Shown here piece by piece: positions 21,655-59,370 of a DNA stretch of 64,000 bases. The DNA lies in assembly GCA_040387635.1 (NCBI GenBank), contig JAZKDJ010000001.1, positions 179,851-243,850 of the forward strand. Reading direction: 5' to 3'. The DNA is from Patescibacteria group bacterium (GTDB lineage: Bacteria > Patescibacteriota > Minisyncoccia > Phycocordibacterales > PALSA-1337). The position numbers and the translations under genes were made by a program. The stretch's first letter is position 1. Each line of letters begins with the position of its first letter. Under the pieces are notes generated by a model, which was given only the letters and a program-made list of their open reading frames with translations, did no database searches and was not told the origin of the DNA.

Positions 21655-24600
21655 TTATGTCCACAACTTGGCATTCTCGAAGACCTGCGCCCATGGGCTT
21701 ACTTTGAAGTTGGCCCACGAGTCAGGCATCCATGGCCATACGAGATCACGAGTAAGACGTTCTGGATGAGGCATCACGAACAGATGTCTGCCGTCGCGAC
21801 TGGTAATGCCGGCGATACCGTGAGGAGAGCCGTTCGGGTTGAACGGATATTCTTGAGTTGGTGTGCCGTTCGGCAGAGTGTAGCGCAACGCTACGAGCTG
21901 TTCTCGTTCAATGAGCGACAGCGCTTCTCTGTTTGGAAAGACAAACCTTCCCTCTCCATGTGATACGATCACTCCAAGCGTGGATCCTTCCATCCCCCGC
22001 AACATTATCGACGGGGTTTTCTCAATTCTGACGTTGGATAATCCTGATTCAAATTTCCCTGACACGTTGTGATCCATGTAGGGCTGATGTTCTTCTCCGA
22101 GTCCCGGAGCGATACCCAGCAAGGTGCCAAGCTGGCAACCATTGCATGGGCCGAATGTAAACGTATCCGCACGACCGATGAACCTTTGGAAGGCTTTGGC
22201 AAGCGGGCTGAACTTGATAAGAGCAGCCTGCCCCCTAGCACTTCCCAGCGCATCGGCGTATGAGAAACCGCCCACAAATGCCGCTCCACGAAACTCCTGG
22301 AGATTGGCCTTACCTCTGAGCAAGTCGCTCATGGTAACGTCGTAAGCCCTGAAGCCTACGTAGTTGAATGCGGCCTGCATTTCGCGATGGCCGTTGCTCC
22401 CTCGAGCACGAATGACGGCAACCTTAGGAGATGTCCGAACAGATTTTCTGCGCACCGCCTTCGGCGTAAACGAGAGATTCCACTGCGGCACTTCATGCCG
22501 ATGCGGACTCTTCGCCATTTGCCGGACGAGGCGCTTGTTCATCTGCTCTTCCTCCATGCGGTCGCTTGTTGCTTCCCACCACATCCGGATGGTCTTGATG
22601 TCCTCTTCGAGAACAACAGGACCGTCAGATCCAAACGCAATGGAGAACTTTTCGTCCTTGATCGTACAACCAACTTCCTGGAAGTGTTCCATGAGTCCGT
22701 ATTCGTGCAGAACATCCAAGATTTCCTTGTGATGCTCGCGCTCGTACTCGATCGCAAAACCGAGCTCCTCATTAAAGAGAAAAGCGGCGTAGTCTGCATC
22801 ATTGGGACGGAAGCGAAGTTTCATGCCGCTTGGCCCAGATATAGCCATTTCGGCAAGCATAGTGATGAGGCCCCCATCGCTCCGATCGTGACCGGAGAGA
22901 ATAAGGCCTTTGCGAATAAGGGACTGAACCGCATTAAACCCATCACTAAGGAGTTTGATGTCCGCATCGGGACTATTGTTTCCGACCTGTTTAAAGGTCT
23001 GAGCGATAGCCGAACCACCAAGTCGCTGATGACCTCGTGAGAGATCGACAAACCCGATAAGGCTTTCGCCTGATCGCTTGATGTTCGGAGTGATAATTTT
23101 ACGCGCATCACGCGTTGAGCCGTATGCTGAAACAACCACTGTTCCAGGTGACATTACTTCTTCATCACCAACTTTGGCCAGAAGAGACAAGCTGTCCTTG
23201 CCTCCGTCAGGCTGCATTCCCCGAAGGGCGCAGAAGAAGTCGCTGATAGCTTTAACCCCGCGATACATGAGTACCGCTTGGCCCGGACGCTTCGCTGGAC
23301 ACATCCAGTTGACTGAACATTTAAGCGCCGATAGCCCTCCATCGATAGGTGCCCACATAATATTCATGAGCGCCTCGGCTGCTGACATACGGACACCCGC
23401 CTCAGTGCTGACAAGCATCTTGATCGGCTGTTCGCCGACCGCAGATACGGCCGCCCTTTCGGTGTAGAGGCTGAGCGTGATAGCCGCAAGATTGGAAATA
23501 GGAAGTTGGAATGGTCCACATCCCTGCTGCCGCGCTATGCGACCTCCAACACTGCGGTCTTTTTTCCGAATGATCCAATTTTTCGATCCTACGGATGGCA
23601 AAGCCATGACGCGCTTGAGCAATGAGGCCAAACTTTTCCCTTTCGGAATTTTGAATGGCTTGAGCTTGCACTCCTTCGTACTGTCGACGAAGCGCTTGCG
23701 AGGAACATTTTCGAGAATAGGGCCCAGAGGCAGGTTGACCGGTGTGACGGCAGAGTGTGAGTCTTCCAGCACGATACGGCCCTTACCTGTAACTTTGCCC
23801 AAAACATCGATTGGAAGTCCTTCGCGCAAACAGATAGCCCTGAGAATCCGAAGACCCGCAGGCGTAACCAAGACGGCATTCCGTTCTTGGAATTCTGAGC
23901 ACCAAATCTTGAGCACTCCCATAGTCGTATCACCGAGTGTCACCTTGCGGATATTCAATCGGGCGCCGGCAGGAGAAACAATTTCAGTGATGACGTTGCA
24001 AAGACCTCCTGCACCTTGATCGTGCGCGGAAATGATTGGGTTCCATTTCCCCATCATGATACAGGCGTAGATAACTTCATCCATCATCCTTTCCTCAGCA
24101 GCATTGCCGCGTTGGACGGAAGCGAAATCAAGCTTCACGCTGTTGTCGCCGCCAGCCATGCTGGAAGCCGCGCCTCCTCCCGTTCCCACCGGATACGCCA
24201 CTCCACCGATCGATACCACAAGCAATCCCTTGCGGGGCTTACCTTTAGTTCGATGGGTATCAGGCATGAATCCGCCGGTACCTGCGAAGAGAATGGGCTT
24301 AATATATTCCCGTCTCTTACCACCGACCATTTGGCCGAAGGTACGAGTGAAGCCGATCGGGCACGGAATGCCAAACTCATTTCCATAGCGGGCGCAGCCA
24401 TTGCTACCCTCGATCATGATTCTGAGCGGGCTCGCAAATCGGTCTGACAAAGCAAACCTACTCTCGCCCGGAATAATGTAATTACGGAGATTGAGATTCC
24501 CCGTCGCGTAGCCGCACATGGTCCATGCCGGAGTTCCTCCACGACGCATCATTTGAACATCGCGAATGCAACCGCCAGTGCCGGTAGCAGCTCCCCAGAA

Positions 24601-25464
24601 TGGGGAAACTCCAGTCGGATGACAGTGCGTTTCCGCAGTCCAGATGATATGCGTTCTACATTCGCGCAATACGATCTCACTTAAATTCCCCGGATGGAGA
24701 GGTACATACGTAGGTACCGTGAAGCCTTCGATTGAGCTCGAGTTGTCATCGAAAGCAGCGCGACTATTAGTCTTGCCGCGTGCAATCTGCTCCTGAAGCG
24801 GACGACGGATAAGATCAAGGAGGGACTCCTTCATATCTTCGCCGTCGAGACACATGATTCCCTTGAAGAACCAGTGCCTGCAATGTTCGCTGTTCATCTG
24901 AGCGAGCTGGAACAGCTCGACGTCAGTAGGGTCACGACCGATCACCTTGATGATAAGGTCGTACACCATTTCAATATCCCAGTCGTCCCAGCCGAGGCCG
25001 AGCAACTTGTTGATTTTGATGAGAGCTTTCTTGCCATGCTTGCTCACCAGGACCGTACGTACCTTTTCGGGACGCAGGTTGACCCTGAATGATTCAAGCG
25101 GCTTTTCGAAAACGTCTTCGACAAGAGGATCGTGGTGCGACAAAGCAAACTGCTTAAAGTCGCTTCCCCGCGGCACGACGAGTCTTCGATTCTCTTCCAC
25201 GCGAGTGACCGGCAAGCCGATTTCCTTACATATGGAGACAATGTTGGAAGACGCAGGTGTTTCAATTGCTACCCGCGGTCCAACTTCGAGAACCCTGCCC
25301 TGGAGATCACTCTCCTTGCTAAGGTTGTGAATTTCAATCGGACCAGCAATAAGCCAGTCCAACATAACGCTCTCCGATCTCGTAAGAGGTCGAGTAAGCC
25401 CAATATTCAGGCATCGTTCCTGCCCTGGTTTTCGACCAGGAAGAAACATTCGTTGAATTCTCAT
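21655..25464 (-). CDS. purL: Phosphoribosylformylglycinamidine (FGAM) synthase, large single-chain form with C-terminal glutaminase domain
   Basis: The 1269-aa protein has an N-terminal domain, a duplicated AIR-synthase-like core (e.g. EQPIKMLVS, GGKDSLS) and a C-terminal class I amidotransferase (GGFSYADALG, GPCNGCQLG, HGEGRF). Confidence 0.95.
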   Translation of the reverse strand: MRIQRMFLPGRKPGQERCLNIGLTRPLTRSESVMLDWLIAGPIEIHNLSKESDLQGRVLEVGPRVAIETPASSNIVSICKEIGLPVTRVEENRRLVVPRGSDFKQFALSHHDPLVEDVFEKPLESFRVNLRPEKVRTVLVSKHGKKALIKINKLLGLGWDDWDIEMVYDLIIKVIGRDPTDVELFQLAQMNSEHCRHWFFKGIMCLDGEDMKESLLDLIRRPLQEQIARGKTNSRAAFDDNSSSIEGFTVPTYVPLHPGNLSEIVLRECRTHIIWTAETHCHPTGVSPFWGAATGTGGCIRDVQMMRRGGTPAWTMCGYATGNLNLRNYIIPGESRFALSDRFASPLRIMIEGSNGCARYGNEFGIPCPIGFTRTFGQMVGGKRREYIKPILFAGTGGFMPDTHRTKGKPRKGLLVVSIGGVAYPVGTGGGAASSMAGGDNSVKLDFASVQRGNAAEERMMDEVIYACIMMGKWNPIISAHDQGAGGLCNVITEIVSPAGARLNIRKVTLGDTTMGVLKIWCSEFQERNAVLVTPAGLRILRAICLREGLPIDVLGKVTGKGRIVLEDSHSAVTPVNLPLGPILENVPRKRFVDSTKECKLKPFKIPKGKSLASLLKRVMALPSVGSKNWIIRKKDRSVGGRIARQQGCGPFQLPISNLAAITLSLYTERAAVSAVGEQPIKMLVSTEAGVRMSAAEALMNIMWAPIDGGLSALKCSVNWMCPAKRPGQAVLMYRGVKAISDFFCALRGMQPDGGKDSLSLLAKVGDEEVMSPGTVVVSAYGSTRDARKIITPNIKRSGESLIGFVDLSRGHQRLGGSAIAQTFKQVGNNSPDADIKLLSDGFNAVQSLIRKGLILSGHDRSDGGLITMLAEMAISGPSGMKLRFRPNDADYAAFLFNEELGFAIEYEREHHKEILDVLHEYGLMEHFQEVGCTIKDEKFSIAFGSDGPVVLEEDIKTIRMWWEATSDRMEEEQMNKRLVRQMAKSPHRHEVPQWNLSFTPKAVRRKSVRTSPKVAVIRARGSNGHREMQAAFNYVGFRAYDVTMSDLLRGKANLQEFRGAAFVGGFSYADALGSARGQAALIKFSPLAKAFQRFIGRADTFTFGPCNGCQLGTLLGIAPGLGEEHQPYMDHNVSGKFESGLSNVRIEKTPSIMLRGMEGSTLGVIVSHGEGRFVFPNREALSLIEREQLVALRYTLPNGTPTQEYPFNPNGSPHGIAGITSRDGRHLFVMPHPERLTRDLVWPWMPDSWANFKVSPWAQVFENAKLWT

Positions 25465-25497: not shown

Positions 25498-25525
25498 AAA
25501 CTAGCATTTGAAGGCCTTATGTCAA
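25498..25525 (-). promoter_or_regulatory. Candidate purL promoter (TTGACA-N16-TAGTTT with TGc extended -10)
   Basis: The minus strand reads TTGACA (25525-25520), a 16-nt spacer ending TGC, then TAGTTT (25503-25498). This is about 34 nt upstream of the purL ATG. Confidence 0.45.
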
Positions 25526-25582
25526 TCTATTTACTATCTTCTGGTTGTTTCCTTTTTCTCAGGGCCTTGTATACTGTATGGA

Positions 25583-29206: not shown

Positions 29207-29208
29207 GT

Positions 29209-30306
29209 TCAGTGAAATTCCACGACATGTCCCAGCTTCCTTCCTGGAGCCGGCACCTTACCATAACGATGCACAATCGTACTCGTCTGGGCAAAGTAAT
29301 CTTGGAATGAGCTTTCATCGCCGATGATATTAGTCATACGGCCACCGCACCGCGGGGCTGTATTTCCTAATGGCAGACCAGTTACTGCACGAACATGTTG
29401 TTCGAACTGACTGGTAGCAGCACACTCAATCGTAACGTGGCCGCTGTTATGCGGTCTCGGGGCGATCTCGTTAAAAACCAACCCACCGTTACGCTCAAAA
29501 AAGAATTCCACCGCGAGCAATCCCACCACATTGAGGTGACTTGCGAGTTTGCGTGCAGCTTCATTAGCCTCGCCCAACACCCTTCGAGTGATAAACTCCA
29601 CCGGCCAATCGGTCGTACGGAGAATCCCATCCTTATGAATGTTGTGAAAGGGCGCGTAAGAAGCTACTTGCCCTTTTGCATTGCGCGCGATGATCACAGA
29701 CATCTCGAAGTCGATATCAATCATCTCCTCCACAACGCAAGGTACCTTTTTAAATTCGACCCATGCCGCCCAGAGTTCATCGACATTTCCAACTCGACGC
29801 TGTCCCTTGCCGTCGTAGCCGTTTGTACAGGTTTTCACGATCACGGGAAAGTTAGCCTCTGTAATTGCATCGAAGTCTTTTGGCAGAGTGAGGGACCAAT
29901 ATTTGAGCGTTGGAATCCCCAACTCTTTCGCAACCGCCTTCTCGTAAGAGCGATTCTGCGATACACGAAGCGCTTTGTCACCGGGATAAATCCCAATCTT
30001 GCCGCCCGTAATGCTCTGCAAAATATCGAGCGTACTGAGCGGAATGTTTTCGAACTCCAGCGTAATGACGCTGCAGTGTTCCGCGAAGCGAGTAAGATCT
30101 TCGACACTTGTGAAGCTTCCCACTACGACTTTGGACGCTGCATCGAATCCACAGCAATCTTGCTTGGTATCCATCATGCATGTCCGGTATCCGAACTGTG
30201 AGGCAGACTGTGCGAACATCTTCGCCAACTGTCCTGCTCCCAGCATGCCGATCATTGCTCCCCTCGGCAAAGGGGTTTCTACACCCTGCATCATATCTGG
30301 TTTCAA
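29209..30306 (-). CDS. purK: N5-carboxyaminoimidazole ribonucleotide synthase (ATP-grasp)
   Basis: It has GMLGAGQLAKMF, an ATP-grasp core (VIVKT…GYDGKGQ) and the C-terminal RKLGHV. No purE is adjacent. Confidence 0.88.
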   Translation of the reverse strand: MKPDMMQGVETPLPRGAMIGMLGAGQLAKMFAQSASQFGYRTCMMDTKQDCCGFDAASKVVVGSFTSVEDLTRFAEHCSVITLEFENIPLSTLDILQSITGGKIGIYPGDKALRVSQNRSYEKAVAKELGIPTLKYWSLTLPKDFDAITEANFPVIVKTCTNGYDGKGQRRVGNVDELWAAWVEFKKVPCVVEEMIDIDFEMSVIIARNAKGQVASYAPFHNIHKDGILRTTDWPVEFITRRVLGEANEAARKLASHLNVVGLLAVEFFFERNGGLVFNEIAPRPHNSGHVTIECAATSQFEQHVRAVTGLPLGNTAPRCGGRMTNIIGDESSFQDYFAQTSTIVHRYGKVPAPGRKLGHVVEFH

Positions 30307-34427: not shown

Positions 34428-35627
34428 ATGACACGAAGAACTAACAACTACGCCAAACGTGGCGTAGAATCCGGTAAGCAAAGCGTCCACAAAGCAGTCG
34501 CGGCACTTTATAAAGGAGTCTACCCAAATGCCTTCTGCAAGATTTATCAGCATCCCGTTTTGGCATCATATTGCCGGACGCTCCATGCCGATACCGCAGG
34601 ATCAAAACCAAGCCTTGCATGGTTGGTATATATCCTGACAGGAGACATCGAACTCGCGACTCAAGTCGCTCTCGATTCGGCCTTCATGAACGTTGACGAC
34701 GTGGGGTGCATTGGTGCTGTGGATGATCTCATCCTCAATCAGACCATCGGTTTCAATTCGCACGTGGTTCCAGCAGCCCTCTATCAACGCCTGATCGTGC
34801 GGACTGAAGAACTATGTCAACTTCTCAGGAAGTGGGGCATCGGCATCCGATTCGCCGGTGGCGAAACTGCAAGTGTCGGTAACATTGTGCGGACGTTCGA
34901 TGTCGGCAACAGTCTGTATGCCGAACTCAAGCACAAAGACGTTATCGATGCAGGCAATATGGGTCCGGGAGACATACTGATCGGGATCAGCTCTACGGGC
35001 CAAGCCTCATGGGAGACCGTCAAGAACTCTGGGATGGGGTCAAATGGCCTCACAAGCAGTATTCACGATATGTTGCGGCCATACTATCGCCGCTACAAAG
35101 AAGCTTGCGCACCTCAATTGGTACGCAAAGGAATGGCGTTTCGCGGAAAACACTGGATCGATGATCTCCTGCCAAGCGATCATACATTCACTGTTGGCCA
35201 AGCCCTGCTTTCAGCCACACGGACGTACATGCCGCTTATCAAGCTCGTGCTTGAGCATGTCGGCCGCAAACACATTACAGGAATCATCCACTGTTCAGGT
35301 GGTGGACAGTCAAAGATCATGAAATTCGGCAAGCCCGGAAACCTGTATCTCATCGACCAACCCTTCCCTGTTCCGCCGCTCTTCCGGGACATTCAGCGTG
35401 ACTCACAGACATCCTGGGAAGAAATGTACGAGGTCTTCAACATGGGTTGGCGGCTCATCTTCGCGACCAAAGACAAAGGAGCTGGAGCGGAGATCATTCA
35501 GATCTCTGAAAAGTCCAACATCGATGCTGACCGGGTCGGCAAGATCATCCCTCTTGAAGGAAGCGGTCCTAATGCCGTAAAAGTCATCTCTGCTTACGGT
35601 GAATTGGATCTGGGAAAAGAAAAATAA
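34428..35627 (+). CDS. purM: Phosphoribosylformylglycinamidine cyclo-ligase (AIR synthase), divergent long form
   Basis: PurM-family motifs are present (HADTAGSK, MNVDDVGCIGA, AGGETASVG, SSTG…GSNGLTS, HCSGGGQSK). From memory, the N-terminus YAKRGVESGKQSVHKAV…FCKI resembles the long PurM form of Bacteroidetes. The start at 34428 (MTRRT) is preferred. Confidence 0.8.
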   Translation: MTRRTNNYAKRGVESGKQSVHKAVAALYKGVYPNAFCKIYQHPVLASYCRTLHADTAGSKPSLAWLVYILTGDIELATQVALDSAFMNVDDVGCIGAVDDLILNQTIGFNSHVVPAALYQRLIVRTEELCQLLRKWGIGIRFAGGETASVGNIVRTFDVGNSLYAELKHKDVIDAGNMGPGDILIGISSTGQASWETVKNSGMGSNGLTSSIHDMLRPYYRRYKEACAPQLVRKGMAFRGKHWIDDLLPSDHTFTVGQALLSATRTYMPLIKLVLEHVGRKHITGIIHCSGGGQSKIMKFGKPGNLYLIDQPFPVPPLFRDIQRDSQTSWEEMYEVFNMGWRLIFATKDKGAGAEIIQISEKSNIDADRVGKIIPLEGSGPNAVKVISAYGELDLGKEK

Positions 35628-35652
35628 CCAAACCAAGCACCTCATTAACAGA

Positions 35653-35686
35653 AAGCCGCGGAATGTGACATCCGCGGCTTTTTTCT
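35653..35686 (+). terminator. Intrinsic terminator after purM
   Basis: AAGCCGCGGA-ATGTGACA-TCCGCGGCTT forms a 10-bp stem followed by TTTTTCTTT. Confidence 0.8.
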
Positions 35687-37729: not shown

Positions 37730-39181
37730 CTACTTCTCTAGATCAAGAGTATTGTCTATTCTGATTTGCTTTACGAATTCAGGAACGTGGCTGACGAGAA
37801 TCATAGCTCCTTCATACTGATCAAGCGCCTTAGCGATGACGGGTAGATGTCGGAAGTTGATATGGTTAGTAGGCTCGTCGAGAATGAGGAGACCTGGCTT
37901 CTGCAAAACCAATCGCGCGAACGCAACGAGACCCTTCTGGCCTTCCGAGAGGTTTCCAATTTTTGTATTGATGACGTCGGATGTTATGAGAAAACTTGAA
38001 GCTACTCCTCGAAGCTTGGCTTCATCAGGGCTTTCCATAATACCTCGAAGCGATTCGAACACTGTGTCTTCAAAATTGAGTGTCGAGAAATCCTGACGAT
38101 AGTATCCAACACGAACACCTTCAGTGATAAAGCTTCCTTCAGAAGTTCCGTTAGCAATTGCTTCAAGGAGTGTTGATTTACCAATACCGTTTGGACCGCG
38201 AAGCAGAAGATGCTCTTTGCGTCTAAGCGAGATGTTTGTCTTACGAGCTACTGCCTTATGATCCTTAATCACCTTGTACGAAACAATCTTCAACACTTCT
38301 CCTGAAAGATCAGTCTGTGCAGGGATTACGAAATCCTTGATAGTCCTGTCTTCTTTTCGCACATCAACAATCTCACCTTCGAGCTCTTCAGCCTTCTCCC
38401 TCATTCGCTTAGCAACAAGTCGCATCTGTCCTCCCTTGTTAGCAAAGAAGTTTGCCTTGTCCTTGTTCTCCTGGATTTCTTTCTCGAGCTGAGCGTTCTT
38501 GCGGTTTTCTTTTTCGATACGAGCTGAAATTTCTTTCAAGAGATTGAAATAGTTTCCTACATACTGCTCAACCTTTCGAGTATGAACATCAAGGTACAAA
38601 ACTCCATCAGTGAATGAATTGAGGAAATCCGCGTCGTGGGAAATGACAACACATGTCTTGTTGTGGCTGATGATGAACTGCGTGAGATGTTCAATACCTG
38701 CCTTGTCGAGATTGTTAGTAGGCTCATCAAGAAGAAGGATGTCTGGATCCTGAATCAATGCAGAAGCAAGCAAAAGTCTTGCCTGCTGACCTCCTGAGAA
38801 TGACCTAACAATCCTGTCATGCGGCGCAGTTAGATGAACAACTTCGAGAACCTCATCGATCTTTGGATCGATATCATAGATCTTCTTGTCGAAACTTTTC
38901 TCGAAGAATTCTCTGATCGTAAGATCGAGCTGATCTCGAGGAATAACCTGGCGAGCAGTAGCGATCGTAACTCCGTTGGTGCGATGGATTTTTCCTTCAG
39001 TAGGCTGAATGGCTCCAGTAATCATTCCGAAGATGGTTGATTTACCTGCACCGTTCTGGCCCATGATGGTAATTTTTGAACCCCGACGCACGGAAAAGCC
39101 AACCTCTTCCAAGATTGGCTTTTTTATTCCGTATTCGAAGGAAACATCCTCGAATCGTATGATTACGTCACCTTGCGCCAT
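37730..39181 (-). CDS. ABC-F family ATPase (two tandem ABC domains, no TM domain)
   Basis: It has two Walker A sites (GQNGAGKST, GPNGIGKST), two signature motifs and a charged inter-domain linker. Confidence 0.9.
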   Translation of the reverse strand: MAQGDVIIRFEDVSFEYGIKKPILEEVGFSVRRGSKITIMGQNGAGKSTIFGMITGAIQPTEGKIHRTNGVTIATARQVIPRDQLDLTIREFFEKSFDKKIYDIDPKIDEVLEVVHLTAPHDRIVRSFSGGQQARLLLASALIQDPDILLLDEPTNNLDKAGIEHLTQFIISHNKTCVVISHDADFLNSFTDGVLYLDVHTRKVEQYVGNYFNLLKEISARIEKENRKNAQLEKEIQENKDKANFFANKGGQMRLVAKRMREKAEELEGEIVDVRKEDRTIKDFVIPAQTDLSGEVLKIVSYKVIKDHKAVARKTNISLRRKEHLLLRGPNGIGKSTLLEAIANGTSEGSFITEGVRVGYYRQDFSTLNFEDTVFESLRGIMESPDEAKLRGVASSFLITSDVINTKIGNLSEGQKGLVAFARLVLQKPGLLILDEPTNHINFRHLPVIAKALDQYEGAMILVSHVPEFVKQIRIDNTLDLEK

Positions 39182-39186
39182 TGCTT

Positions 39187-41026: not shown

Positions 41027-42325
41027 ATGAATAAAGCACGAAAAGCCCTCATTTTAGGCAGCGGCGCACGCGAAGACTCGATTGTCTGGCGGCTCTTGCG
41101 CTTCGATCCAACGATGGAAGTGTACGCGGCTCCAGGTAATCCAGGCATGGCGATGAGAGGATGCAAGCTCATTCCTCTCTCCCTCGACCACAAAAATTTC
41201 GAGCTCCTGAAGGATATCGCCCTCAATCTCGGAATCACCCTTGTCATTGTCGGCCCTGATAACGCCTTGGTTGATGGTGTTGTAGGAGTTTTCACCCAGG
41301 CAGGTATCCCGACCTTCGGGCCAGAAACTGCCTGCGTTATCGAAGCCAGCAAAAATTATGCCAAAAATCTCATGCGTAACATCGGTATTCCAACGGCACC
41401 ATTCGAGACATTCTCGAACTATGACGATGCGGCTGCGTATGTCCGCAAAAAAGATGGGCAGGTCGTCGTCAAAGCCGATGGCCTAGCACTCGGCAAAGGG
41501 GTGCGCGTCTGCAATAGTGTGAACGAAGCACTTCAGGCCCTCACGGACTTCATGATCAACGAGAAAGTCGGCGCTGCCGGCAAAACCGTAGTCATTGAAG
41601 ACAAACTCGTGGGCACGGAACTTTCGATTCATGCATTCTGCGACGGCACCGATGCAGCAATGCTCTTGCCTGTACGCGATCACAAAACCCTCACCAGCGA
41701 TCCCAAAAGCCCAATGACGGGCGGCATGGGAGTCTGGGGTCCGATCGATATCGATTCCGAGCTGATGACCACGATCAAGGAAACCATTGTCATGCCATGC
41801 CTTCAAGAATTGAACAAGCGACGCACGCCGTTCCGCGGGTGTCTCTACCCCGGATTAATGCTGACCGCCGACGGTCCCAAAGTCCTGGAGTTCAATGCCA
41901 GACTCGGGGATCCCGAAGCTCAGTGGTACATGCGCATGCTTCGCGAGGACGTTGATGTGTATGACGTGTTTCTCGCTTGCGCTGAAGGAAACCTGAAAAG
42001 ACTCGGGTATGGATCAGAGCCATTCCAGTGGCACAACGCAAACTGTTCCGTAATCACACTGGCTGCGGCGGGATATCCAGAGAAACCTCAAAAAGGTGAC
42101 CCTATCGAAGGTTTGCAGAATTATACCTCCCCGAATGGCAAGACTGTGGTTTTCCACGGCGGCACTGCATGGGTAAACGGTGAGCTCGTCACAAACGGTG
42201 GCCGAGTTCTCTCGGTGAGCACAGTATTGGGTAACGCTGAACCTGTACGCAATGCCTACGAACCCCTGCGAATGGGTCTTGGTTTCTCCCGTTTCCACTA
42301 CCGTGGTGACATTGGCGAGAATTGA
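41027..42325 (+). CDS. purD: Phosphoribosylamine--glycine ligase
   Basis: It has KALILGSGAREDS, ATP-grasp motifs and the C-terminal VTNGGRVL. An in-frame ATG at 40955 (24 extra aa) is an alternative start. Confidence 0.9.
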   Translation: MNKARKALILGSGAREDSIVWRLLRFDPTMEVYAAPGNPGMAMRGCKLIPLSLDHKNFELLKDIALNLGITLVIVGPDNALVDGVVGVFTQAGIPTFGPETACVIEASKNYAKNLMRNIGIPTAPFETFSNYDDAAAYVRKKDGQVVVKADGLALGKGVRVCNSVNEALQALTDFMINEKVGAAGKTVVIEDKLVGTELSIHAFCDGTDAAMLLPVRDHKTLTSDPKSPMTGGMGVWGPIDIDSELMTTIKETIVMPCLQELNKRRTPFRGCLYPGLMLTADGPKVLEFNARLGDPEAQWYMRMLREDVDVYDVFLACAEGNLKRLGYGSEPFQWHNANCSVITLAAAGYPEKPQKGDPIEGLQNYTSPNGKTVVFHGGTAWVNGELVTNGGRVLSVSTVLGNAEPVRNAYEPLRMGLGFSRFHYRGDIGEN

Positions 42326-42348: not shown

Positions 42349-42390
42349 AAAGCCGGCGCGACATTGATTGTCGTCGCGCCGGCTTTTTTT
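42349..42390. terminator. Strong bidirectional terminator between convergent genes
   Basis: AAAGCCGGCGCGAC…GTCGCGCCGGCTTT forms a 14-bp stem followed by TTTTTT. Confidence 0.8.
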
Positions 42391-43026: not shown

Positions 43027-43962
43027 GTGAAAATTAATAAACGCGTGAGGATTTGTGCGGGCAAAGGCGGCGTTGGAAAGACATTCTGTGCCGTATCGAC
43101 TGCTATTTTCCTGGCCAGTATCGGCCAGAAGACCCTTATCATTGATTACGATGGCGGGCATAATGTTCTCCATACGTTAGGTATCACGGAGAAAATCGCG
43201 AAAAACAAGATCGTGAAGCTTCGTGACAATCTCTATATCTGCATCATTGCAGGCATCAGATTTGACAGCATCCGCGCGTGCCAGGAGCATAAAATCGGAT
43301 TCGAGCAGTACTTCTCCCAGTTCCCCAAAGACTACGGGATGATCGCTCTCAACGACATGGTCCACAAATTTTTTGGCGTCTCCACGGACATCCCGACGCT
43401 CCAAAAGTTTCTTTCACTGGTGATTATGCTGGAGTTTGCGCAAAAGGAAAACTTCGAGAACATTGTCATTGACGTGGAACCAACCGCAGGTCTCGAACGT
43501 TTGCTTTCGGAGGCGAAGACATTGATTGAAAGCATGTCCAATCTCAAGGACAAAGGACTGATTGCGCTGACGTTTATCGGCGCTAACTGGCCCGACATCA
43601 AGAAATTTCTGCAATCGGATTATATCGCCAACATCGATACGTACATGCAAAACGTTGCTCATACTGTCGATTTCCTGGGCAATGCATCCTACGGCATTGT
43701 TTGTACGGCGGAATCATCTTCCATCGTCCAGGTGGAAGAAGTGGTGAACATCATCCGCTCATACGCCGGCAATATTCAAGGGTTCATCGTCAACAATACC
43801 CGCGATGAATCCTTCGAAGCCGGTAACATTGCCCGACTGGATGCCTACGTCCTGAAGCGGGTACTCAATCCGCGGACGCCTGAAATTCACTTGGGCAACG
43901 ATCCTATCCCCCTCCTCATCAAGACGGGCGAGCGGCTCTTCGAAACGTTTTGGGAAAACTAA
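43027..43962 (+). CDS. ArsA/Get3-like (deviant Walker A, SIMIBI class) ATPase, function unknown
   Basis: It has GKGGVGKT at the N-terminus and DVEPTAG (like ArsA DTAPTGHT). It has a GTG start and is GC-rich relative to its neighbours. Confidence 0.65.
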   Translation: MKINKRVRICAGKGGVGKTFCAVSTAIFLASIGQKTLIIDYDGGHNVLHTLGITEKIAKNKIVKLRDNLYICIIAGIRFDSIRACQEHKIGFEQYFSQFPKDYGMIALNDMVHKFFGVSTDIPTLQKFLSLVIMLEFAQKENFENIVIDVEPTAGLERLLSEAKTLIESMSNLKDKGLIALTFIGANWPDIKKFLQSDYIANIDTYMQNVAHTVDFLGNASYGIVCTAESSSIVQVEEVVNIIRSYAGNIQGFIVNNTRDESFEAGNIARLDAYVLKRVLNPRTPEIHLGNDPIPLLIKTGERLFETFWEN

Positions 43963-46577: not shown

Positions 46578-47360
46578 ATGGATACGTCAATCAATGCAGA
46601 AGCCAGCAACAACTTCAATTTGTTTGCGAGCAACCCCTACCCCGGCCGCTTCATCCTCATTGGAAGGGATAGTGTCAGTGGAAACTTGGTTCAGGTGTAC
46701 GGCCTAACTGGCCGTAGCGAGAACAGCCGCAACCGCGTCTTCTCTTCCGATGACGACGGGCGCCTCTTCACCGAAGCCGCGGATCCGGCCAAGGTCAAAG
46801 ACCCTAGCCTCATCATCTACAACGCGATGCTCGAGACTGTCTGTGACGGCAAGAAACGCTGCATCGTCAGCAACGGCGATCAAACTGATTCTGTTATCGC
46901 TTATTTCAATCGAGGTGAAAACAATGACGGAGATACGCTTGTAGCGGCGCTTCAAGGCAGACAGTACGAACCCGACCAACCCAACTTCACACCTCGCATT
47001 ACGGGAATGTGTTTTCCTGCCTTCACCAAGCACATCACACTCTCAGTACTCCGGAAATCCGTTTTCAACGATAGTTGTGATCGCTGCTTCTATCATTACG
47101 TAAACATTCCAGCCGGCTACGGAATGCTCATCTCGACCTACAGCGGCGACGGCAATCCGCTTCCCTCGTTCAGGGGCGAGCCGATGCTGATGCCGCTCAA
47201 GGGCGATCCGACCGACATCCTCGAGACCTACTGGGGCGCGCTGAATGAAGCGAACCGCGTCGCACTGGCAGTCAAGATCATCGACGCCAAAACCGGCGTC
47301 TCTGAAATCCGCATCAAGAACAAGCTTGAAAAAGTCTCGGCACCTACTGCCACGGCCTGA
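46578..47360 (+). CDS. purO: IMP cyclohydrolase-like protein (archaeal PurO family)
   Basis: Motifs YPGRFILIGR…VYGLTGRSENSRNR, SNGDQTD and YEPDQPNFTPRITG match my recollection of the PurO/IMP_cyclohyd family. The start at ATG 46578 is preferred given the promoter position. Confidence 0.65.
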   Translation: MDTSINAEASNNFNLFASNPYPGRFILIGRDSVSGNLVQVYGLTGRSENSRNRVFSSDDDGRLFTEAADPAKVKDPSLIIYNAMLETVCDGKKRCIVSNGDQTDSVIAYFNRGENNDGDTLVAALQGRQYEPDQPNFTPRITGMCFPAFTKHITLSVLRKSVFNDSCDRCFYHYVNIPAGYGMLISTYSGDGNPLPSFRGEPMLMPLKGDPTDILETYWGALNEANRVALAVKIIDAKTGVSEIRIKNKLEKVSAPTATA

Positions 47361-47492: not shown

Positions 47493-47831
47493 ATGGCACC
47501 AAAAGAATCAACATCAGAAAATACAAAAGCGCAAATGCGGAAAGGCATCCTGGAGTTCTGCATCTTGCTCGTGATCGCGAGAGACCGGGTCTACGCGTCG
47601 GAAATTTTATCCGAACTTAAAAAAGCAGATCTCATAGTGGTCGAAGGAACGCTCTATCCCCTCTTAAGTCGCCTTCGCTCAGCAGGTCTCCTGCGTCACA
47701 GCTGGGAGGAATCAAAGTCAGGCCCACCGCGCAAGTACTACACTCTGACTGAAGCAGGTCGTGAATCACTCGAAGAACTCAAGGCAACATGGAAGGTCCT
47801 AGCATCATCCATCGCCACTCTAACCAAGTAA
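47493..47831 (+). CDS. PadR-family transcriptional regulator
   Basis: It has the wHTH pattern …YASEILSELKK…VVEGTLYPLLSRLRSAGLL…YYTLTEAG in 112 aa. Confidence 0.9.
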   Translation: MAPKESTSENTKAQMRKGILEFCILLVIARDRVYASEILSELKKADLIVVEGTLYPLLSRLRSAGLLRHSWEESKSGPPRKYYTLTEAGRESLEELKATWKVLASSIATLTK

Positions 47832-53673: not shown

Positions 53674-53744
53674 TGCGGGATCGTCTAAAGGTAGGACGTC
53701 GCTCTCTGAAAGCGAAAATTTTGGTTCGATTCCAAGTCCCGCAG
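53674..53744 (+). tRNA. tRNA-Gln (anticodon CUG)
   Basis: I folded the cloverleaf by hand. The acceptor is TGCGGGA/TCCCGCA (U1-A72, G73 as in bacterial tRNA-Gln) and the D arm is GTCT/GGAC with a GG loop. The anticodon arm is TCGCT-CTCTGAA-AGCGA and the T arm is TTTGG-TTCGATT-CCAAG. The CCA end is not encoded. Confidence 0.9.
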
Positions 53745-53749
53745 CAAAC

Positions 53750-54520
53750 ATGATCGATAAATTTAAAAAGCTATTTGGTTCGCAGGCTGCAAATTATACA
53801 AAGTACAGAGAACCTTATCCAAGTGAGCTTTTTGATCTATTGATTGAGCAGATACCCGAAGGTAGTAATAATATTCTCGATATTGCATGCGGTACTGGAA
53901 AATCTACCGAACCTCTTGTTGATACTAATTTAAAAGTATTCGGAGTTGATCATGATCCACAGATGATTGAAGAGGCGCTAAAACAAGCTCAACTTAAAAA
54001 CCTTAGGGTCGATTATCAGGTTTCAAACGCTGAACATCTACCATTTCCGGATAATTATTTTGATGTAGTTACAGTAGGAACTGCTTTTCACTTTTTTGTG
54101 AATGAGGCTGCAATATCTGAAATCAAAAGAGTGCTTAAGCCAAAAGGACTTTTGTTTGTGTATTGGACACTAACAACAAAAGACATACCTGAACAAGATG
54201 AGATTCCGGGGACTATCTATAGGAAATACAACTGGATGAAAGTGCCTTCTGAACTTCGCGACCTTGCCCATATATCAGATTTTTTTAGCAAAGCTGACCT
54301 ACACAAAGTTTCTACAAAAAGAATACCGATCACTTTCAATACCACAGTTGAAGAGCGGGTTGGGCTTCAAACCACTTCCGGTACTTATGAACTTTTATCT
54401 GAGGAAGATAAGAAAAGCTTCTTATCTGAAGTAAAAGATGTACTGACTCAAAAATTGGGAGATCGTCCATACTTTACCCTAGAAGAAGAGATACAGGTTT
54501 GTTATGGATTTAAAGACTAA
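53750..54520 (+). CDS. Class I SAM-dependent methyltransferase (Methyltransf_11-like)
   Basis: It has ILDIACGTGKST and …DVVTVGTAFHFF. The start is moved to ATG 53750 because the upstream part of ORF 53627..54520 overlaps the tRNA. Confidence 0.82.
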   Translation: MIDKFKKLFGSQAANYTKYREPYPSELFDLLIEQIPEGSNNILDIACGTGKSTEPLVDTNLKVFGVDHDPQMIEEALKQAQLKNLRVDYQVSNAEHLPFPDNYFDVVTVGTAFHFFVNEAAISEIKRVLKPKGLLFVYWTLTTKDIPEQDEIPGTIYRKYNWMKVPSELRDLAHISDFFSKADLHKVSTKRIPITFNTTVEERVGLQTTSGTYELLSEEDKKSFLSEVKDVLTQKLGDRPYFTLEEEIQVCYGFKD

Positions 54521-56414: not shown

Positions 56415-56867
56415 TTAACTCGGCAATTCGTCCCAGAATTGTTCGGCTCTGAGCCATCCGGCAATGAGCGATCCCTTGTTAGAGACCCCGAACTCGACCA
56501 CTCCGTCTTTCCGGCGAATACCGAGAATAGTCGCCATCACGACACCCATTGGAGTAAGGACGGGTGCCTCAGCCCCCTTCTCTGCAATGGCAACTCCACG
56601 AATGTTCCGCTCTTCGGTAGTAAAGTTTTCGAATGGTTCCGAAGTTTGGTCAACTTCTGGAGCAAACGACACTTTGTTCTGCTTGGCCAACTCTTCAGTA
56701 GTTAGCCTAATACATTCGACAGCTCCGCTATTGGTCGCCATGAGAGCGTTATAAAGAATGCGGATAACGGCCAATGAAGCTTCAGTATCCTTATCATCAC
56801 CCACCAACGGAACCAGAACCTCGAGCCTGTGCATGAGACTTACTCGGTCTATTGTAACCCTACTCAT
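56415..56867 (-). CDS. Hypothetical cytoplasmic protein (150 aa), GC-rich
   Basis: It is a clean ORF with its own terminator. I recognised no motif. A hand count gives about 54% GC at 56461-56560. Confidence 0.55.
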   Translation of the reverse strand: MSRVTIDRVSLMHRLEVLVPLVGDDKDTEASLAVIRILYNALMATNSGAVECIRLTTEELAKQNKVSFAPEVDQTSEPFENFTTEERNIRGVAIAEKGAEAPVLTPMGVVMATILGIRRKDGVVEFGVSNKGSLIAGWLRAEQFWDELPS

Positions 56868-57205: not shown

Positions 57206-57838
57206 CTACCTTTCCCTTACCTGCTCGGGCACGACGCTCACCACGTAGTACTCATCGGCTTCGCCGTTAGTGAGTGGCGTTGGACAAATGATGGTCGCGA
57301 GCGCTGCTATGGAAGCACCACTCGTGCGCGCCGCCGAACAAAGAGCTTCGGTCTGGCCCGTGAGATCCAAGACATCGTCGAGCACAATGACAGATTTGCC
57401 TTTTACATGCTCAACAAGATTCTTGCCGACAGTGAACCGGCCTGAATTCAACCTGTCGAAGAGCACGAACCTGATCGGCTCCTGTTTACCCTGCTTGTTC
57501 GGGGTCTGCCGATACACTTCATTCAGTCTCGCCGTAAGGAGCTTTGCGAGATCGCTCTTTTCAGTCACACTGGATGCGACAACTGCGGTAATGGGCCGGA
57601 GGCACATTGCAGGATAAAGCCGGTAAGCAAGGTCGCAGACCAGAGCGTCGAGCGAAAGCTTGTGGCACTCTGGATAAAGAAACGCAGGTTCCACAGATTG
57701 GAACGTGCTACCTGTCAAAACTCCCATCCCCCTCATCAAAGCACAGGCCTTGTCAACGCCTAAGCAACCATTGTTTAACATAGATTGGTAATGTAGATCT
57801 ATGTACAGATTACTCGCAACCAGCGCTATGTCAACCAA
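57206..57838 (-). CDS. Phosphoribosyltransferase-fold protein, substrate unknown
   Basis: It has a PRPP-binding-like motif VIVLDDVLDLTGQT. The ORF-track start at 57838 is TTG. An alternative ATG at 57781 lies behind a TTGACA-N16-TAATCT promoter-like sequence (57834-57807, minus strand). Confidence 0.5.
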   Translation of the reverse strand: MVDIALVASNLYIDLHYQSMLNNGCLGVDKACALMRGMGVLTGSTFQSVEPAFLYPECHKLSLDALVCDLAYRLYPAMCLRPITAVVASSVTEKSDLAKLLTARLNEVYRQTPNKQGKQEPIRFVLFDRLNSGRFTVGKNLVEHVKGKSVIVLDDVLDLTGQTEALCSAARTSGASIAALATIICPTPLTNGEADEYYVVSVVPEQVRER

Positions 57839-57876
57839 AAGAAAAACAGGAGAAGCACCGATCGCCTCCCCTGTTT
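57836..57876 (-). terminator. Intrinsic terminator after the pyrE-like gene
   Basis: The minus-strand stem ACAGGGGA/TCTCCTGT contains a G-U pair that exists only in the minus-strand RNA. TTTTTCTTTT follows. Confidence 0.6.
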
Positions 57877-57898
57877 CTGTGTTTTAAAGTACTCGTAA

Positions 57899-58588
57899 CT
57901 ATGCCGCAGCCGTTTGACGTGCGAGGAATGCCGCGCCGTGACCCAGGTCAGTACGAACTGGGATTTGCTTGGCATCGCAGATTGGACATTTACCTTCCGC
58001 GAATTTGTCCATTTTAACATTGAGCAGAACTTCGAGATGTGGAACACCTATACCTTTAGCCGTGACTCCACCCCGATTGCAAAGAGCGGCAACAATGATT
58101 GGACAACCTCCGAATCGGCGTACAGCTTCGCATGTTGCTTCAGCGCTGCGACCTGAATTGAGAATGTCCTCAACAACAATGACATTCTTTCCACCTACAA
58201 TCTTGTCGTAGCCACGTCGTAGTTCGAACCTGTCACCTCCAGTCTTTTCTGCGTAAACTGAAGGAAAACAAGATCCGACAAGTTGAGTGAGCCAAAACGA
58301 AAGCCATGTCGAGAGGATTAGTCCTCCTTTTTCCGGCCCCACAATCACATAGGAAGTGGTTGGGCGTTGAGTAATTACGCCCACAACACGATGTGCCAAC
58401 TCATAACAAAGTTTGGAAACAGCAACAGAGTCAACGTATACTGCGTCCTTATTGATATAAGCAGGCCCGTGGTCGCCATGACCTTCTGGCTTCGAATACA
58501 CGAAGTGCGAATCAGCGATGACTGCCCGAGCGTCATCAAGAATCTGTCGGATTTTTGCTTCATCCAACCGTTCCATATTAATATTCAT
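57899..58588 (-). CDS. pyrE: Orotate phosphoribosyltransferase-like PRTase
   Basis: It has the PRPP motif VIVVEDILNSGRS and an OPRT-like layout (…YAEKTGG…ELRRG…). It sits immediately downstream of pyrF. The start at MNINMERL (58588) is preceded by AAGGAG. Confidence 0.6.
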   Translation of the reverse strand: MNINMERLDEAKIRQILDDARAVIADSHFVYSKPEGHGDHGPAYINKDAVYVDSVAVSKLCYELAHRVVGVITQRPTTSYVIVGPEKGGLILSTWLSFWLTQLVGSCFPSVYAEKTGGDRFELRRGYDKIVGGKNVIVVEDILNSGRSAEATCEAVRRFGGCPIIVAALCNRGGVTAKGIGVPHLEVLLNVKMDKFAEGKCPICDAKQIPVRTDLGHGAAFLARQTAAA

Positions 58589-58614
58589 AATTCTCCTTAT
58601 TTTGAGGTTGAGGT

Positions 58615-59370
58615 TTAGTTCTGACTCCACGCCTCATCGATCTCCGCGAGAATCCGACAAGCTGCGTTGAAAGGAGTTTTGATGTTCGTAGGCGGCGCAT
58701 AAACAGGCCGACCAACGACGAGGAAATTACTGCCAGCCTCGACAGCTTCCTGCACCGTCGTAGCACGCTTCTGATCATCAGGAGTCGCTGCCCATGGAGG
58801 GCGGATCGCCGGAGTAACCAGGATGAGAGTATCGGCGTAATCACCGAAATTGCGAAGAGAATTAACCTCTTGCGGGCTGCACACCATGCCTCGAATACCA
58901 TTCGAACATCCCAATCGTACGAGATCCATAACTTGTTCGATTGGGACCATAGGGTGTCCGGCCACCTTCCTGACGTTTACCTCAATAAGCGTCTTCGGGG
59001 TGCTGCTTGTAAGTACAGTCACACCAAGAAGAGTCATGCCGGGAAATTCGCTCGCAGCTTTCGCTGCCGCGGCAATCATTTCGCTTCCGCCGTCGAGATG
59101 GATGTTCACCATATCAACGCCGAGTTTACCCGCCGCCTTGATCGCGCGGCTAACAGTATTCGGAATGTCCTTGAATTTGAGGTCGAGAAAAACTTTGAAC
59201 CCCAGCGCTTTGGCGGATTTGATAACCTCGTGACCTTCAGCCACAAAAAGCTCCATACCCACTTTCAGCCACTCAACAGTTCCCCGAAGGTCTGTCATGA
59301 GGGTGAGGGCTTCATCGTGCGAACCAACATCGAGAGCCACAATCAATTGCGGCTTAGTCTTTGCTTTCAT
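58615..59370 (-). CDS. pyrF: Orotidine-5'-phosphate decarboxylase
   Basis: Motifs LIVALDV, LKVGMELF, FLDLKFKDIPNTV and VVGRPV are present. Confidence 0.9.
   Translation of the reverse strand: MKAKTKPQLIVALDVGSHDEALTLMTDLRGTVEWLKVGMELFVAEGHEVIKSAKALGFKVFLDLKFKDIPNTVSRAIKAAGKLGVDMVNIHLDGGSEMIAAAAKAASEFPGMTLLGVTVLTSSTPKTLIEVNVRKVAGHPMVPIEQVMDLVRLGCSNGIRGMVCSPQEVNSLRNFGDYADTLILVTPAIRPPWAATPDDQKRATTVQEAVEAGSNFLVVGRPVYAPPTNIKTPFNAACRILAEIDEAWSQN

Follow-up and report, generated by a model that had tools for sequence, protein, structure and literature searches.

The window analysed here, a 64,000-nt stretch of contig JAZKDJ010000001.1 (GCA_040387635.1, Patescibacteria), raises the question of how genes for de novo nucleotide synthesis with GC-rich codons came to be scattered, one at a time, through an AT-rich backbone. 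A first-pass annotation made from the nucleotide letters had suggested horizontal acquisition, possibly from one GC-richer donor. The most likely explanation, to which we give a probability of roughly 50%, is lateral acquisition of eight genes from GC-richer donors, probably CPR. De novo purine synthesis had also been described as generally missing in CPR genomes, which is overstated: the route to IMP is reported as complete in ~32% of 399 groundwater CPR MAGs (PMC11608272), and the pathway is thus not rare in CPR.

Gene identities and layout

Profile, Pfam, and PDB matches bear out the six enzyme assignments originally proposed. PurL (21655..25464, minus strand; start at 25449 per NCBI) is a large single-chain FGAM synthase (TIGR01735, 1255 bits; cutoff 1123), PurK (29209..30306, minus strand; 29209-30294 per NCBI) is an N5-CAIR synthetase (NF004679, 344.5 bits; cutoff 326), and PurD (41027..42325, plus strand; mechanical ORF from 40955) is a GAR synthetase (TIGR00877, 378.5 bits; cutoff 288). 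The purM gene (34428..35627, plus strand; mechanical ORF from 34386) encodes a long-form AIR synthetase of 399 aa that matches PDB 3kiz (4e-91) and 3mdo (1e-87), both over the full length; TIGR00878 covers its C-terminal part only, and a Pfam search returned no Pfam match. Homologues of this long form adjoin purL in loci L038 and L015, and in L022 the two genes are fused. A 260-aa PurO-type IMP cyclohydrolase-like protein (46578..47360, plus strand) matches the full PF07826 domain (E = 2.5e-40) and scores under the archaeal PurO equivalog cutoffs. PyrF (58615..59370, minus strand) is an OMP decarboxylase (NF001273, 220 bits; cutoff 193; PDB OMP decarboxylases, 1e-38).

One of two proposed phosphoribosyltransferases (PRTases) was recovered as such, the pyrE-like PRTase at 57899..58630 (minus strand; PF00156; TIGR01367, 82 bits, under the cutoff of 150). 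The other, an ORF at 57206..57838 (minus strand; 57206-57781 per NCBI), gave sub-threshold signals only (Pfam Pribosyltran, E = 0.002, below cutoff; PDB PRPP-loop matches, E = 0.07-0.9) and is possibly a divergent type-I PRTase; a 150-aa ORF that adjoins it (56415..56867, minus strand) had no match in family searches. Also present are a non-nucleotide gene for an ArsA/GET3-family P-loop ATPase (43027..43962, plus strand; PF02374, 5e-23; PDB ArsA/Get3 matches) and a PadR-family regulator (47493..47831, plus strand; PF03551) adjoining PurO.

The focal genes are nonadjacent, as first described, lying on both strands at spacings of 3.7-9.8 kb, and purK belongs to a compact array of 10 genes that share its direction (27541-34094), spaced 3-74 bp apart. 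This dispersal is real, and pur genes in other CPR (L085 and L086) are likewise scattered among unrelated housekeeping genes. Bacteria such as E. coli also commonly have scattered pur genes.

Most of these genes had been credited with their own promoter-like and terminator sequences. Strong terminator-like hairpins do follow purL directly (21579..21610, minus strand; intrinsic type, 14-bp stem with 8 GC pairs), purM (35650..35683, plus strand; 13-bp stem), purD, the ArsA-like gene (43982-44011), PurO (47393-47421), and the pyrE-like gene (57842-57878), whereas purK lacks a strong one. The purD hairpin (42349..42386; 15-bp stem with 10 GC pairs) is GC-rich, lies between the convergent purD and YdjM genes, and is a possible bidirectional terminator. 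Promoter-like sites showed no excess over shuffled sequence (27 vs 23 ± 5.5 and 27 vs 29.7 ± 5.1).

Composition at synonymous sites

Hand counts on 100-nt samples had put the focal genes at 52-59% GC. These samples fall within the true ranges, but whole genes reach 51-54% against a background of 44%, a contrast of ~8 rather than ~20 points (purL 52.8, PurO 53.9, pyrF 52.5, purM 50.8, purD 52.8, and purK 50.8, compared with 40.1 for the sensor kinase, 42-45 for ABC exporters, 43.8 for gpmI, and 47.0 for pyrG). The GC3 values first reported for the initial 60 codons of PurO, the kinase, and gpmI (0.68, 0.37, and 0.50) are exact. At fourfold-degenerate sites the separation is clear: GC4 is 0.51-0.69 in the focal genes vs a background mean of 0.345 (Mann-Whitney p ~1e-4), and no gene of at least 250 aa has a GC4 between 0.41 and 0.51. 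Individual values are 0.522 for purL, 0.534 for purK, 0.515 for purM, 0.579 for purD, 0.514 for pyrF, 0.688 for PurO (GC3 0.669), and 0.600 for the PRTase-like ORF (GC 0.524).

An unsupervised principal component analysis of RSCU set apart on PC1 exactly eight genes, namely purL, purK, long-form purM, purD, the PurO-type gene, pyrF, the PRTase-like ORF, and the ArsA-like ATPase, the last being the compositional extreme of the window (GC3 0.631, GC4 0.724). The idea that the nucleotide genes look foreign in composition stands at synonymous sites, with two amendments: the pyrE-like gene resembles the background (GC4 0.344) and falls outside the GC-rich class, and the non-nucleotide ArsA-like gene falls within it. 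Two further genes show borderline shifts, the PadR regulator (GC4 0.524, n = 63), which may belong to the PurO patch, and the ORF at 56415..56867 (GC 0.501, GC4 0.481).

Native genes are AT-ending, with GC4 values of 0.257 for eno, 0.303 for groEL, 0.366 for groES, 0.344 for secG, 0.269 for RNase J, 0.319 for pyrG, and 0.31 for gpmI. The focal genes lie outside the range of native highly expressed genes (eno, groEL, RNase J, and pyrG), and expression or amino-acid bias thus does not explain their codon usage. Composition changes at gene edges within at most 90 nt, and intergenic DNA is host-like. The eight genes themselves are heterogeneous in GC4 (p = 5e-5) and form two classes, six genes near 0.54 that are mutually homogeneous (p = 0.45) and PurO with the ArsA-like gene near 0.70, which argues against the single GC-richer donor initially proposed.

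At purL, GC4 exceeds that of the flanks by 0.16; the same difference stays within about ±0.06 at purL loci of other genomes below 0.47 GC, with L038 (-0.15) as the sole exception. Likewise, pur genes equal their flanks at fourfold sites in the CPR loci L085, L086, L015, and L087. By a regression over 73 purL orthologues, the window purL points to a long-term host GC of 0.48-0.55, with GC2 implying a higher host GC than GC3, which is a pattern of amelioration. The strand-dependent G/C skew at fourfold sites is host-like in the rich genes (-0.28 and +0.03 vs -0.33 and 0.00 in native genes; p = 0.057, n = 4 vs 4), a match that hints at long residence.

Relatives and synteny

In sister Paceibacteria, the collinear backbone is kept (prfB-ftsE-ftsX-pyrG ... 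DEAD/ABC-F ... GIY-YIG, with backbone proteins 58-75% identical), and the rich genes are absent at those positions. One anchor, the ABC-F ATPase and DEAD-box helicase (37730..40761, minus strand; GC4 0.281 and 0.253), is 72-74% and 61% identical, respectively, to sister loci; the pair is adjacent in L082, and ABC-F occurs alone in L083 (74%). The other, pyrG-ftsX-ftsE-prfB (60003..63959, minus strand; GC4 0.30-0.36), is a syntenic block in L083 and L084, where pyrG is not followed by pyrF, pyrE, or the PRTase-like ORF. Native pyrG has over 100 CPR relatives at 69-75% identity and does not stand out among them. Since the sisters are only moderately close, synteny cannot separate gain from loss. 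The locus L087 carries PurO in the same backbone interval, adjoining DEAD and ABC-F, and its PurO identity to the window (54%) falls between those of native ABC-F (65%) and DEAD (42%); this arrangement is also compatible with an ancestral PurO that the sisters later lost.

The named nearest relatives of PurO (50-58% identity) are almost all other CPR, and the window protein is a typical member of its match set (0.542 vs 0.556). Both relatives examined come from GC-richer genomes in which PurO looks native (L087, 48% GC; L118, 53% GC). Any transfer was thus most likely within Patescibacteria rather than from outside. The placement of PurL shifts with the outgroup: in the unrooted tree 92/100 bootstraps join it to a Paceibacterota copy as its sister, but with an outgroup 56/60 make it basal to all the other bacterial sequences. 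Its outgroup distance of 1.141 lies ~10 SD above the others (0.928 ± 0.021), and an outlier test gave 0.481 vs 0.674. PurL is extremely divergent and rate-accelerated and has no stable phylogenetic placement.

A search of 5.8 billion proteins found no sampled donor, the best identities being 49% for PurL, 49-52% (full-length) for PurD, and 58% for PurO; a metagenome scan yielded a 53-aa fragment only. Unless the donor belongs to an unsampled lineage, a transfer recent enough to leave donor-like synonymous sites should have closer relatives than these. Repeats, integrases, and tRNA-linked scars are absent.

Gain, retention, and artefact as possible explanations

We infer gain rather than loss. 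The eight genes would be gene-precise patches in gaps of an AT-ending Paceibacteria-type backbone, brought in on two or more occasions or from two or more sources. Probable donors are genomes of ~48-55% GC, most probably other Patescibacteria already carrying CPR-type purine genes, and amelioration toward the AT-biased codon usage of the host would still be incomplete. Composition, absence from the sisters, and the GC-richer CPR genomes that carry the PurO relatives examined back acquisition; the purL phylogeny, the donor search, and the hunt for scars do not. Also counted against it are the L087 PurO interval, the host-like strand skew, the position of purK within its co-directional array, and the need for genes of one pathway to have entered a single 38-kb region at least five to six separate times without leaving scars.

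A real if less probable competitor, at perhaps half the weight, is vertical inheritance of ancestral CPR genes, retained in this genome but lost one gene at a time from the sampled sisters. Their GC-rich codons would then be no relic of history but actively maintained by a gene-specific force, such as codon selection or GC-biased gene conversion in accessory genes that recombine often. Losses of single genes in this way typify reductive evolution. The CPR affinity of PurO and its L087 position, the dispersal of pur genes in other CPR, the lack of donor or scar, and the shared skew all speak for it, and the rate acceleration and raised GC of purL would fit biased conversion. However, no known mechanism keeps synonymous GC high in just these genes, native highly expressed genes shift the opposite way, and other CPR with pur genes show no fourfold-site contrast. 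The signature is moreover common to the unrelated ArsA-like ATPase and to the unassigned ORF at 57206..57838, and GC2 of purL implies a GC-richer history at the amino-acid level too.

That the GC difference is a by-product of amino-acid composition or of the expression of conserved enzymes in an AT-rich genome is very improbable, although it accounts for part of the raw contrast: across 73 genomes purL is expected ~4 GC points above flanks of 0.44 GC, pur genes in L086 exceed their flanks by 8-10 points at equal GC4, and the focal genes exceed the background in GC1 and GC2. The contrast nevertheless survives at fourfold sites and in RSCU, which largely refutes this explanation; native conserved, highly expressed genes have the lowest GC4, and the within-locus contrast of purL lies ~3 SD (SD by our own estimate) beyond the spread of other genomes. 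Least credible of all is a chimeric assembly or binning of two organisms. Assembly GCA_040384225.1, in which the analysis placed the window on a 586-kb contig, does contain two or more distinct CPR genomes, as its 981-kb contig bears another prfB-ftsE-ftsX-pyrG block that is 69-72% identical in amino acids. The switches, however, match gene boundaries at eight separate genes with intact frames, and an independently made Logan assembly (SRR26324620) reproduces 23.7 kb, from purL through purK into purM, at 100% identity. The same proteins are also found on another long contig (566 kb).

In function, the genes would supply purine steps 2, 4, 5, and 6a, IMP cyclohydrolase, and the final one or two steps of UMP synthesis; combined with pathway genes located elsewhere in the genome, they would lower dependence on scavenged nucleotides. 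CPR offer well-documented cases of sparse metabolic traits that were transferred laterally (PMC7304191), and the eight foreign-looking genes would be a modest new example of this known process.

Codon usage of the GC-rich genes

The window has a GC content of 44.8%, and its focal nucleotide-metabolism genes lie at 50.8–53.9%, whereas background genes average 43.8% (SD 3.0). The contrast is real and persists at fourfold-degenerate sites, but it is smaller than claimed in the first-pass annotation, whose GC3 values over the first 60 codons were exact and whose 100-nt samples were in range, while its whole-gene GC was overstated. GC at fourfold sites (GC4) is 0.522 in purL, 0.534 in purK, 0.515 in purM, 0.579 in purD, 0.688 in a PurO-like gene, 0.600 in a PRTase-like ORF, and 0.514 in pyrF, compared with a background mean of 0.345 and a maximum of 0.41 among native genes of at least 250 aa. 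When relative synonymous codon usage was analyzed by unsupervised PCA, one extreme of PC1 was occupied by exactly eight genes, these seven and an ArsA/GET3-like ATPase gene (43027-43962, + strand; GC3 0.631, GC4 0.724). This ATPase has no link to nucleotide metabolism; its GC3 is the highest of any gene in the window, and it groups with PurO in codon usage. A pyrE-like gene is background-like (GC4 0.344), and two short neighbors of rich genes, PadR and a 150-aa ORF, are borderline in composition.

The shift in the rich genes is toward C-ending and NCG codons, with Lys, Glu, and Gln codons keeping their A-versus-G preference. Composition changes within at most 90 nt of rich-gene edges, and the intergenic DNA is AT-rich. 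The host codon usage is itself unusual: fourfold boxes are strongly A/T-ending, yet Lys/Glu/Gln codons are 45–68% G-ending, so that GC4, for a genome of 44% GC, is low relative to other CPR loci. Two proteins have repetitive N-termini that raise GC2, namely a DEAD-box helicase with an extension of ~150 aa (40150-40761, − strand) composed of Ser/Gly-rich "PSRFGG" repeats ending in an RGG-like tract and an S4-domain protein with a Pro/Ser-rich N-terminus (36628-36950, + strand).

Expression or conservation as a cause of the rich codons was ruled out, since conserved and highly expressed native genes, compared in a set that includes genes up to 9 kb beyond the window, are the lowest in GC4 (eno 0.257, RNase J 0.269, groEL 0.303, secG 0.344, groES 0.366; also DEAD 0.253, ABC-F 0.281, gpmI 0.31, and pyrG 0.319). 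Focal codon usage, which the first-pass annotation had allowed might fall inside the native highly expressed range, lies outside it, and the contrast stands. Amino-acid composition does contribute to the raw GC difference. With flanks at 0.44 GC, the purL GC expected from a regression over 73 purL orthologs is 0.484, and the pur genes of one CPR locus (L086) are 8–10 points GC-richer than their flanks with equal GC4; both effects are insufficient to explain the synonymous-site contrast. Ordinary amino-acid composition is about half of the raw GC contrast, and raw GC differences are therefore unsafe as a sign of transfer.

A general property of purL was ruled out against 80 purL loci from other genomes. 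Among those with GC below 0.47, the purL-minus-flank difference in GC4 is about ±0.06, save for −0.15 at one locus (L038), compared with +0.16 in the window. The adjacent purL-purM pair of L038 (78-5071) is AT-richer than its flanks, the opposite of the window contrast. An assembly chimera is very unlikely, as the Logan assembly of SRR26324620 is 100% identical across 23.7 kb covering purL, purK, and part of purM. That the AT-rich neighbors are the newcomers was likewise rejected, the conserved syntenic backbone being itself AT-ending. Selection for purine-sparing mRNA would fit the change from A to C that the rich genes show at fourfold sites, but finds no support, since pyrF is pyrimidine-rich.

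Gene identities and pathway coverage

Annotation of ~65 window ORFs with NCBIfam and Pfam upheld the names given earlier to purL, purK, purM, purD, and pyrF, purM by way of PDB entry 3kiz. PurL is of the large single-chain type (TIGR01735, 1255 bits, above the equivalog cutoff), and its conserved catalytic positions are apparently intact, the invariant alignment columns including the window sequence. PurK (equivalog NF004679, 344.5 bits against a cutoff of 326), PurD (equivalog TIGR00877, 378.5 bits), and the OMP decarboxylase PyrF (NF001273, 220 bits) also score above their cutoffs. PurM is of the long form (~390–400 aa) seen in Bacteroidota, aligning over its full length with 3kiz and 3mdo (E = 4e-91), which we take to be the Cytophaga hutchinsonii and Parabacteroides distasonis enzymes; the difference is that this copy sits in a CPR genome. 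Of the canonical PurM models, TIGR00878 covers only the C-terminal part and Pfam AIRS/AIRS_C gives no match.

The PurO-like protein resembles archaeal PurO IMP cyclohydrolase through a full-length match to Pfam PF07826 (E = 2.5e-40), although it falls far under the archaeal equivalog cutoffs (TIGR01922 and NF003167; 43.6 and 36.4 bits against 150 and 158), and a search of the PDB returned no sequence match. Its sequence places it in a bacterial branch of the PF07826 family that is made up largely of CPR proteins, with putative IMP cyclohydrolase activity. Of two PRTases named in the first-pass annotation, the gene at 57899-58630 does encode a PRTase, pyrE-like though below cutoff (82 bits against 150), while the ORF at 57206-57838 gives sub-threshold PRTase signals only, and its AF2 single-sequence model (pLDDT 34) is unusable. 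Three supposed native salvage kinases (6315-6878, 27541-28086, and 30333-30911) do have native composition but are P-loop kinases of uncertain specificity.

PurD, PurL, PurM, and PurK of the de novo route to IMP are thus recognizable as enzymes in the window, and PurF, PurN/T, PurE, PurC, PurB, and AICAR transformylase were found neither there nor in ~9 kb on each side. In other purL-bearing CPR, some of the remaining steps are present: purN in L085 and L015, and purC and purE in L086.

Gene arrangement, relatives, and origin

Native conserved proteins, by sequence comparison, group with Patescibacteria, and NCBI labels the window proteins "Patescibacteria group bacterium". The top 120 matches of native PyrG share 69–75% identity, every named lineage among them is Paceibacterota, Parcubacteria, or Minisyncoccota, and window PyrG does not stand out from them (0.711 versus 0.706). 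Three sister Paceibacteria loci share the backbone: L083 and L084 retain prfB-ftsE-ftsX-pyrG, L082 retains ABC-F adjoining DEAD, and L083 also keeps the order pyrG ... ABC-F ... GIY-YIG. At the matching positions of these sisters, pyrF, pyrE, purD, and the other rich genes were not found. Backbone proteins are 58–75% identical to those of the window (FtsX 46%), and because the sisters are this distant, synteny alone cannot separate gain from gene-by-gene loss.

The window is part of contig JAWVHC010000019.1, of 586,594 bp, in assembly GCA_040384225.1. The L083 block lies in that same assembly, on JAWVHC010000005.1 (981,549 bp, 36% GC), and its proteins are only 69–72% identical to the set encoded at 60003-63959 (FtsX 46%). 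Since this second block is diverged and on a different contig, no fewer than two distinct CPR genomes are mixed in the assembly, a point to bear in mind for any metabolic reconstruction from it.

The reading that we favor, at about even odds (probability ~0.5), is that the eight rich genes came in by two or more lateral acquisitions, the donors being GC-richer and probably Patescibacteria, and would be incompletely ameliorated. The first-pass annotation had proposed acquisition, possibly from one GC-richer donor; the foreign codon usage and the absence from sisters hold, whereas a single donor is unlikely, given that the eight genes differ in GC4 by more than chance (chi-square p = 5.5e-5). 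Six genes (purL, purK, purM, purD, pyrF, and the PRTase-like ORF) share a GC4 of ~0.54 with no significant spread (p = 0.45), while PurO and the ArsA-like gene form a richer class at ~0.70.

The relatives of these genes are distant. The best non-self match of PurL is at 49%, and matches at 44–49% come from Actinomycetota, several CPR, Acidobacteriota, Nitrospirota, and Chloroflexota; these are 67% identical among themselves, while window PurL averages 48% to them and is an extreme outlier. An NJ tree without a root joins it to a Paceibacterota PurL in 92 of 100 bootstraps, but once giant-virus PurL is added as outgroup it falls basal to every bacterial sequence (56/60), at an outgroup distance of 1.141 versus 0.928 ± 0.021 for all others. 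These distances and trees indicate that purL is rate-accelerated and subject to long-branch attraction, for which reason it cannot be placed. Window PurO is a typical member of its match set (best matches 50–58%; named sources Andersenbacteria, Paceibacterota, Staskawiczbacteria, Moranbacteria, and one Rectinemataceae). Two relatives at 54–55% identity lie in GC-richer genomes in which PurO is like its neighbors, namely L087 (Paceibacterota, 48% GC, GC4 ~0.6) and L118 (53% GC). The best full-length relatives of PurD are at 49–52%, with one 197-aa fragment at 69%. Homologs of purM adjoin purL in two loci, L038 (41.5%) and L015 of Moraniibacteriota. In L022 the two genes are fused, and the 1652-aa purL-purM fusion (9965-14923) is accompanied by a GC-rich purN-like gene among AT-rich neighbors. 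A scan of genome contigs for a purL donor gave 44–49% matches only, and JGI metagenome contigs gave a 53-aa fragment and no closer relatives. Viral contigs returned giant-virus matches alone for purL (26–39%), none for PurO, and one spurious match (26%) for the ArsA-like gene. By codon usage, the rich class is like any genome of ~49–57% GC, with no specific match.

Alternatively, these could be ancestral CPR genes, inherited vertically and lost from the sisters, with their composition maintained by a gene-specific force, an account that we consider rather unlikely. The distances just described speak in its favor, as a recent transfer with donor codons kept should leave relatives closer than 49–58%, barring an unsampled donor lineage. 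So does the position of PurO in L087, in the same backbone interval beside DEAD and ABC-F. The arrangement of the rich genes points the same way: no direct or inverted repeats flank the rich patches in the window, no integrase or transposase is found among its annotated genes, and gain would need at least 5–6 scarless same-pathway insertions in one 38-kb stretch. GC-rich purK sits amid AT-rich genes in a tight operon-like array, in which ten co-directional genes follow one another at intervals of −4 to 74 bp (27541-34094, − strand: unk155, YgjP, GIY-YIG, ABC-2 permease, ABC ATPase, AAA_33 kinase, purK, SET-domain protein, unk156, and Udk-like kinase). Strand-dependent fourfold G/C skew, alike in rich and native genes, is a hint only (rich −0.28 and +0.03, native −0.33 and 0.00; n = 4 versus 4, p = 0.057). 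Against vertical inheritance, no mechanism maintaining the composition is evident, the contrast is missing in other CPR, and the unrelated ATPase has the same signature.

Improbable, in our estimate, is a third possibility, namely a scarless gene-by-gene rebuilding of nucleotide autonomy from a lineage absent from databases, in which at least eight genes (five purine, one or two pyrimidine) may have entered a collinear backbone singly in a host-dependent CPR, or else a gene-class-specific process holding codons GC-rich, which may be, for example, GC-biased conversion on recombining accessory genes that also accelerates purL; either would reveal a new way in which the genomes of reduced symbionts evolve.

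Regarding transcription, strong terminator-like hairpins directly follow purL, purM, purD (common to the convergent YdjM gene), the ArsA-like gene, PurO, and the pyrE-like gene. The earlier proposal of own terminators is thus largely borne out, purK having none, and most patches, purK apart, are plausibly monocistronic. That of own promoters is not, sigma-70-like hexamers occurring at chance frequency, no more commonly than in shuffles. The only RNA gene found in the window, tRNA-Gln(CTG) (53674-53745, + strand), adjoins no patch; a mechanical ORF (53627-54520) overlaps it, so this methyltransferase gene must start downstream of the tRNA.

Other features of the arrangement include the SET-domain gene (28640-29134, − strand), annotated as a lysine methyltransferase, between purK and kinase genes; three paralogous ABC exporters with fused transmembrane and ATPase domains, two in tandem (16705-20263, − strand) and one divergent from purL (25508-27358, + strand); and two tandem M14 zinc carboxypeptidase paralogs (50524-52374, − strand) with a 119-nt segment 71% identical. 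Two ECF-type sigma factor genes (11974-12495 and 44023-45349, − strand) each overlap or abut the gene downstream. Of these neighbors, one is an unassigned 469-aa ORF and one encodes a DUF5667 protein, and the two couples may be sigma/anti-sigma pairs.

If lateral gain is correct, the window offers a clean, datable case of a reduced CPR genome gaining biosynthetic genes and not only losing them, with evidence from codon usage rather than contested deep phylogenies.

Comparison with known systems

In E. coli, pur genes occur as singles or pairs around the chromosome. The window resembles such dispersed regulons and the CPR loci L085, L086, and L015 in that the same enzymes are non-operonic and interleaved with unrelated genes. 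Scatter among housekeeping genes is seen in L086 (purC and purE, then valS and tyrS, then purL), and purL adjoins purN in L085. The window differs in having five purine genes in 26 kb, none adjacent and with a composition unlike that of their neighbors, whereas the compact purN-purL-purM cluster of L015 (3083-8849) keeps native composition.

The rich genes resemble Lawrence–Ochman amelioration in their atypical GC3 and codon usage, gene-precise boundaries, absence from the syntenic positions of relatives, and a GC2-implied GC above the GC3-implied GC. They differ in forming single-gene patches in place of a multi-gene island with an integrase, tRNA linkage, or direct repeats, in having no identifiable donor, and in nearest homologs at only 49–58%.

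Nucleotide synthesis is described as often missing from CPR (PMC7304191, PMC5220378), and a survey of 399 groundwater CPR MAGs found a complete de novo route to IMP in 32% (PMC11608272); the window adds caution against treating CPR as uniformly without purine synthesis. The accepted account of sparse CPR traits is lateral transfer, its source often obscured, and such transfer has shaped RuBisCO, NiFe hydrogenases, and glycolytic enzymes (Jaffe et al. 2020, PMC7304191). Those traits share with the window sparse accessory metabolic genes in reduced genomes, variable context, and sequences set apart from other bacteria, which obscures their source. In the window, it is de novo nucleotide synthesis that is concerned, and the chief evidence is an intragenomic codon-usage contrast rather than conflict between gene and species trees. 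No description of compositional mosaicism of this kind was found in the papers examined. The window case is a further instance of a known process, distinguished by a clean codon-usage dichotomy at single-gene resolution.
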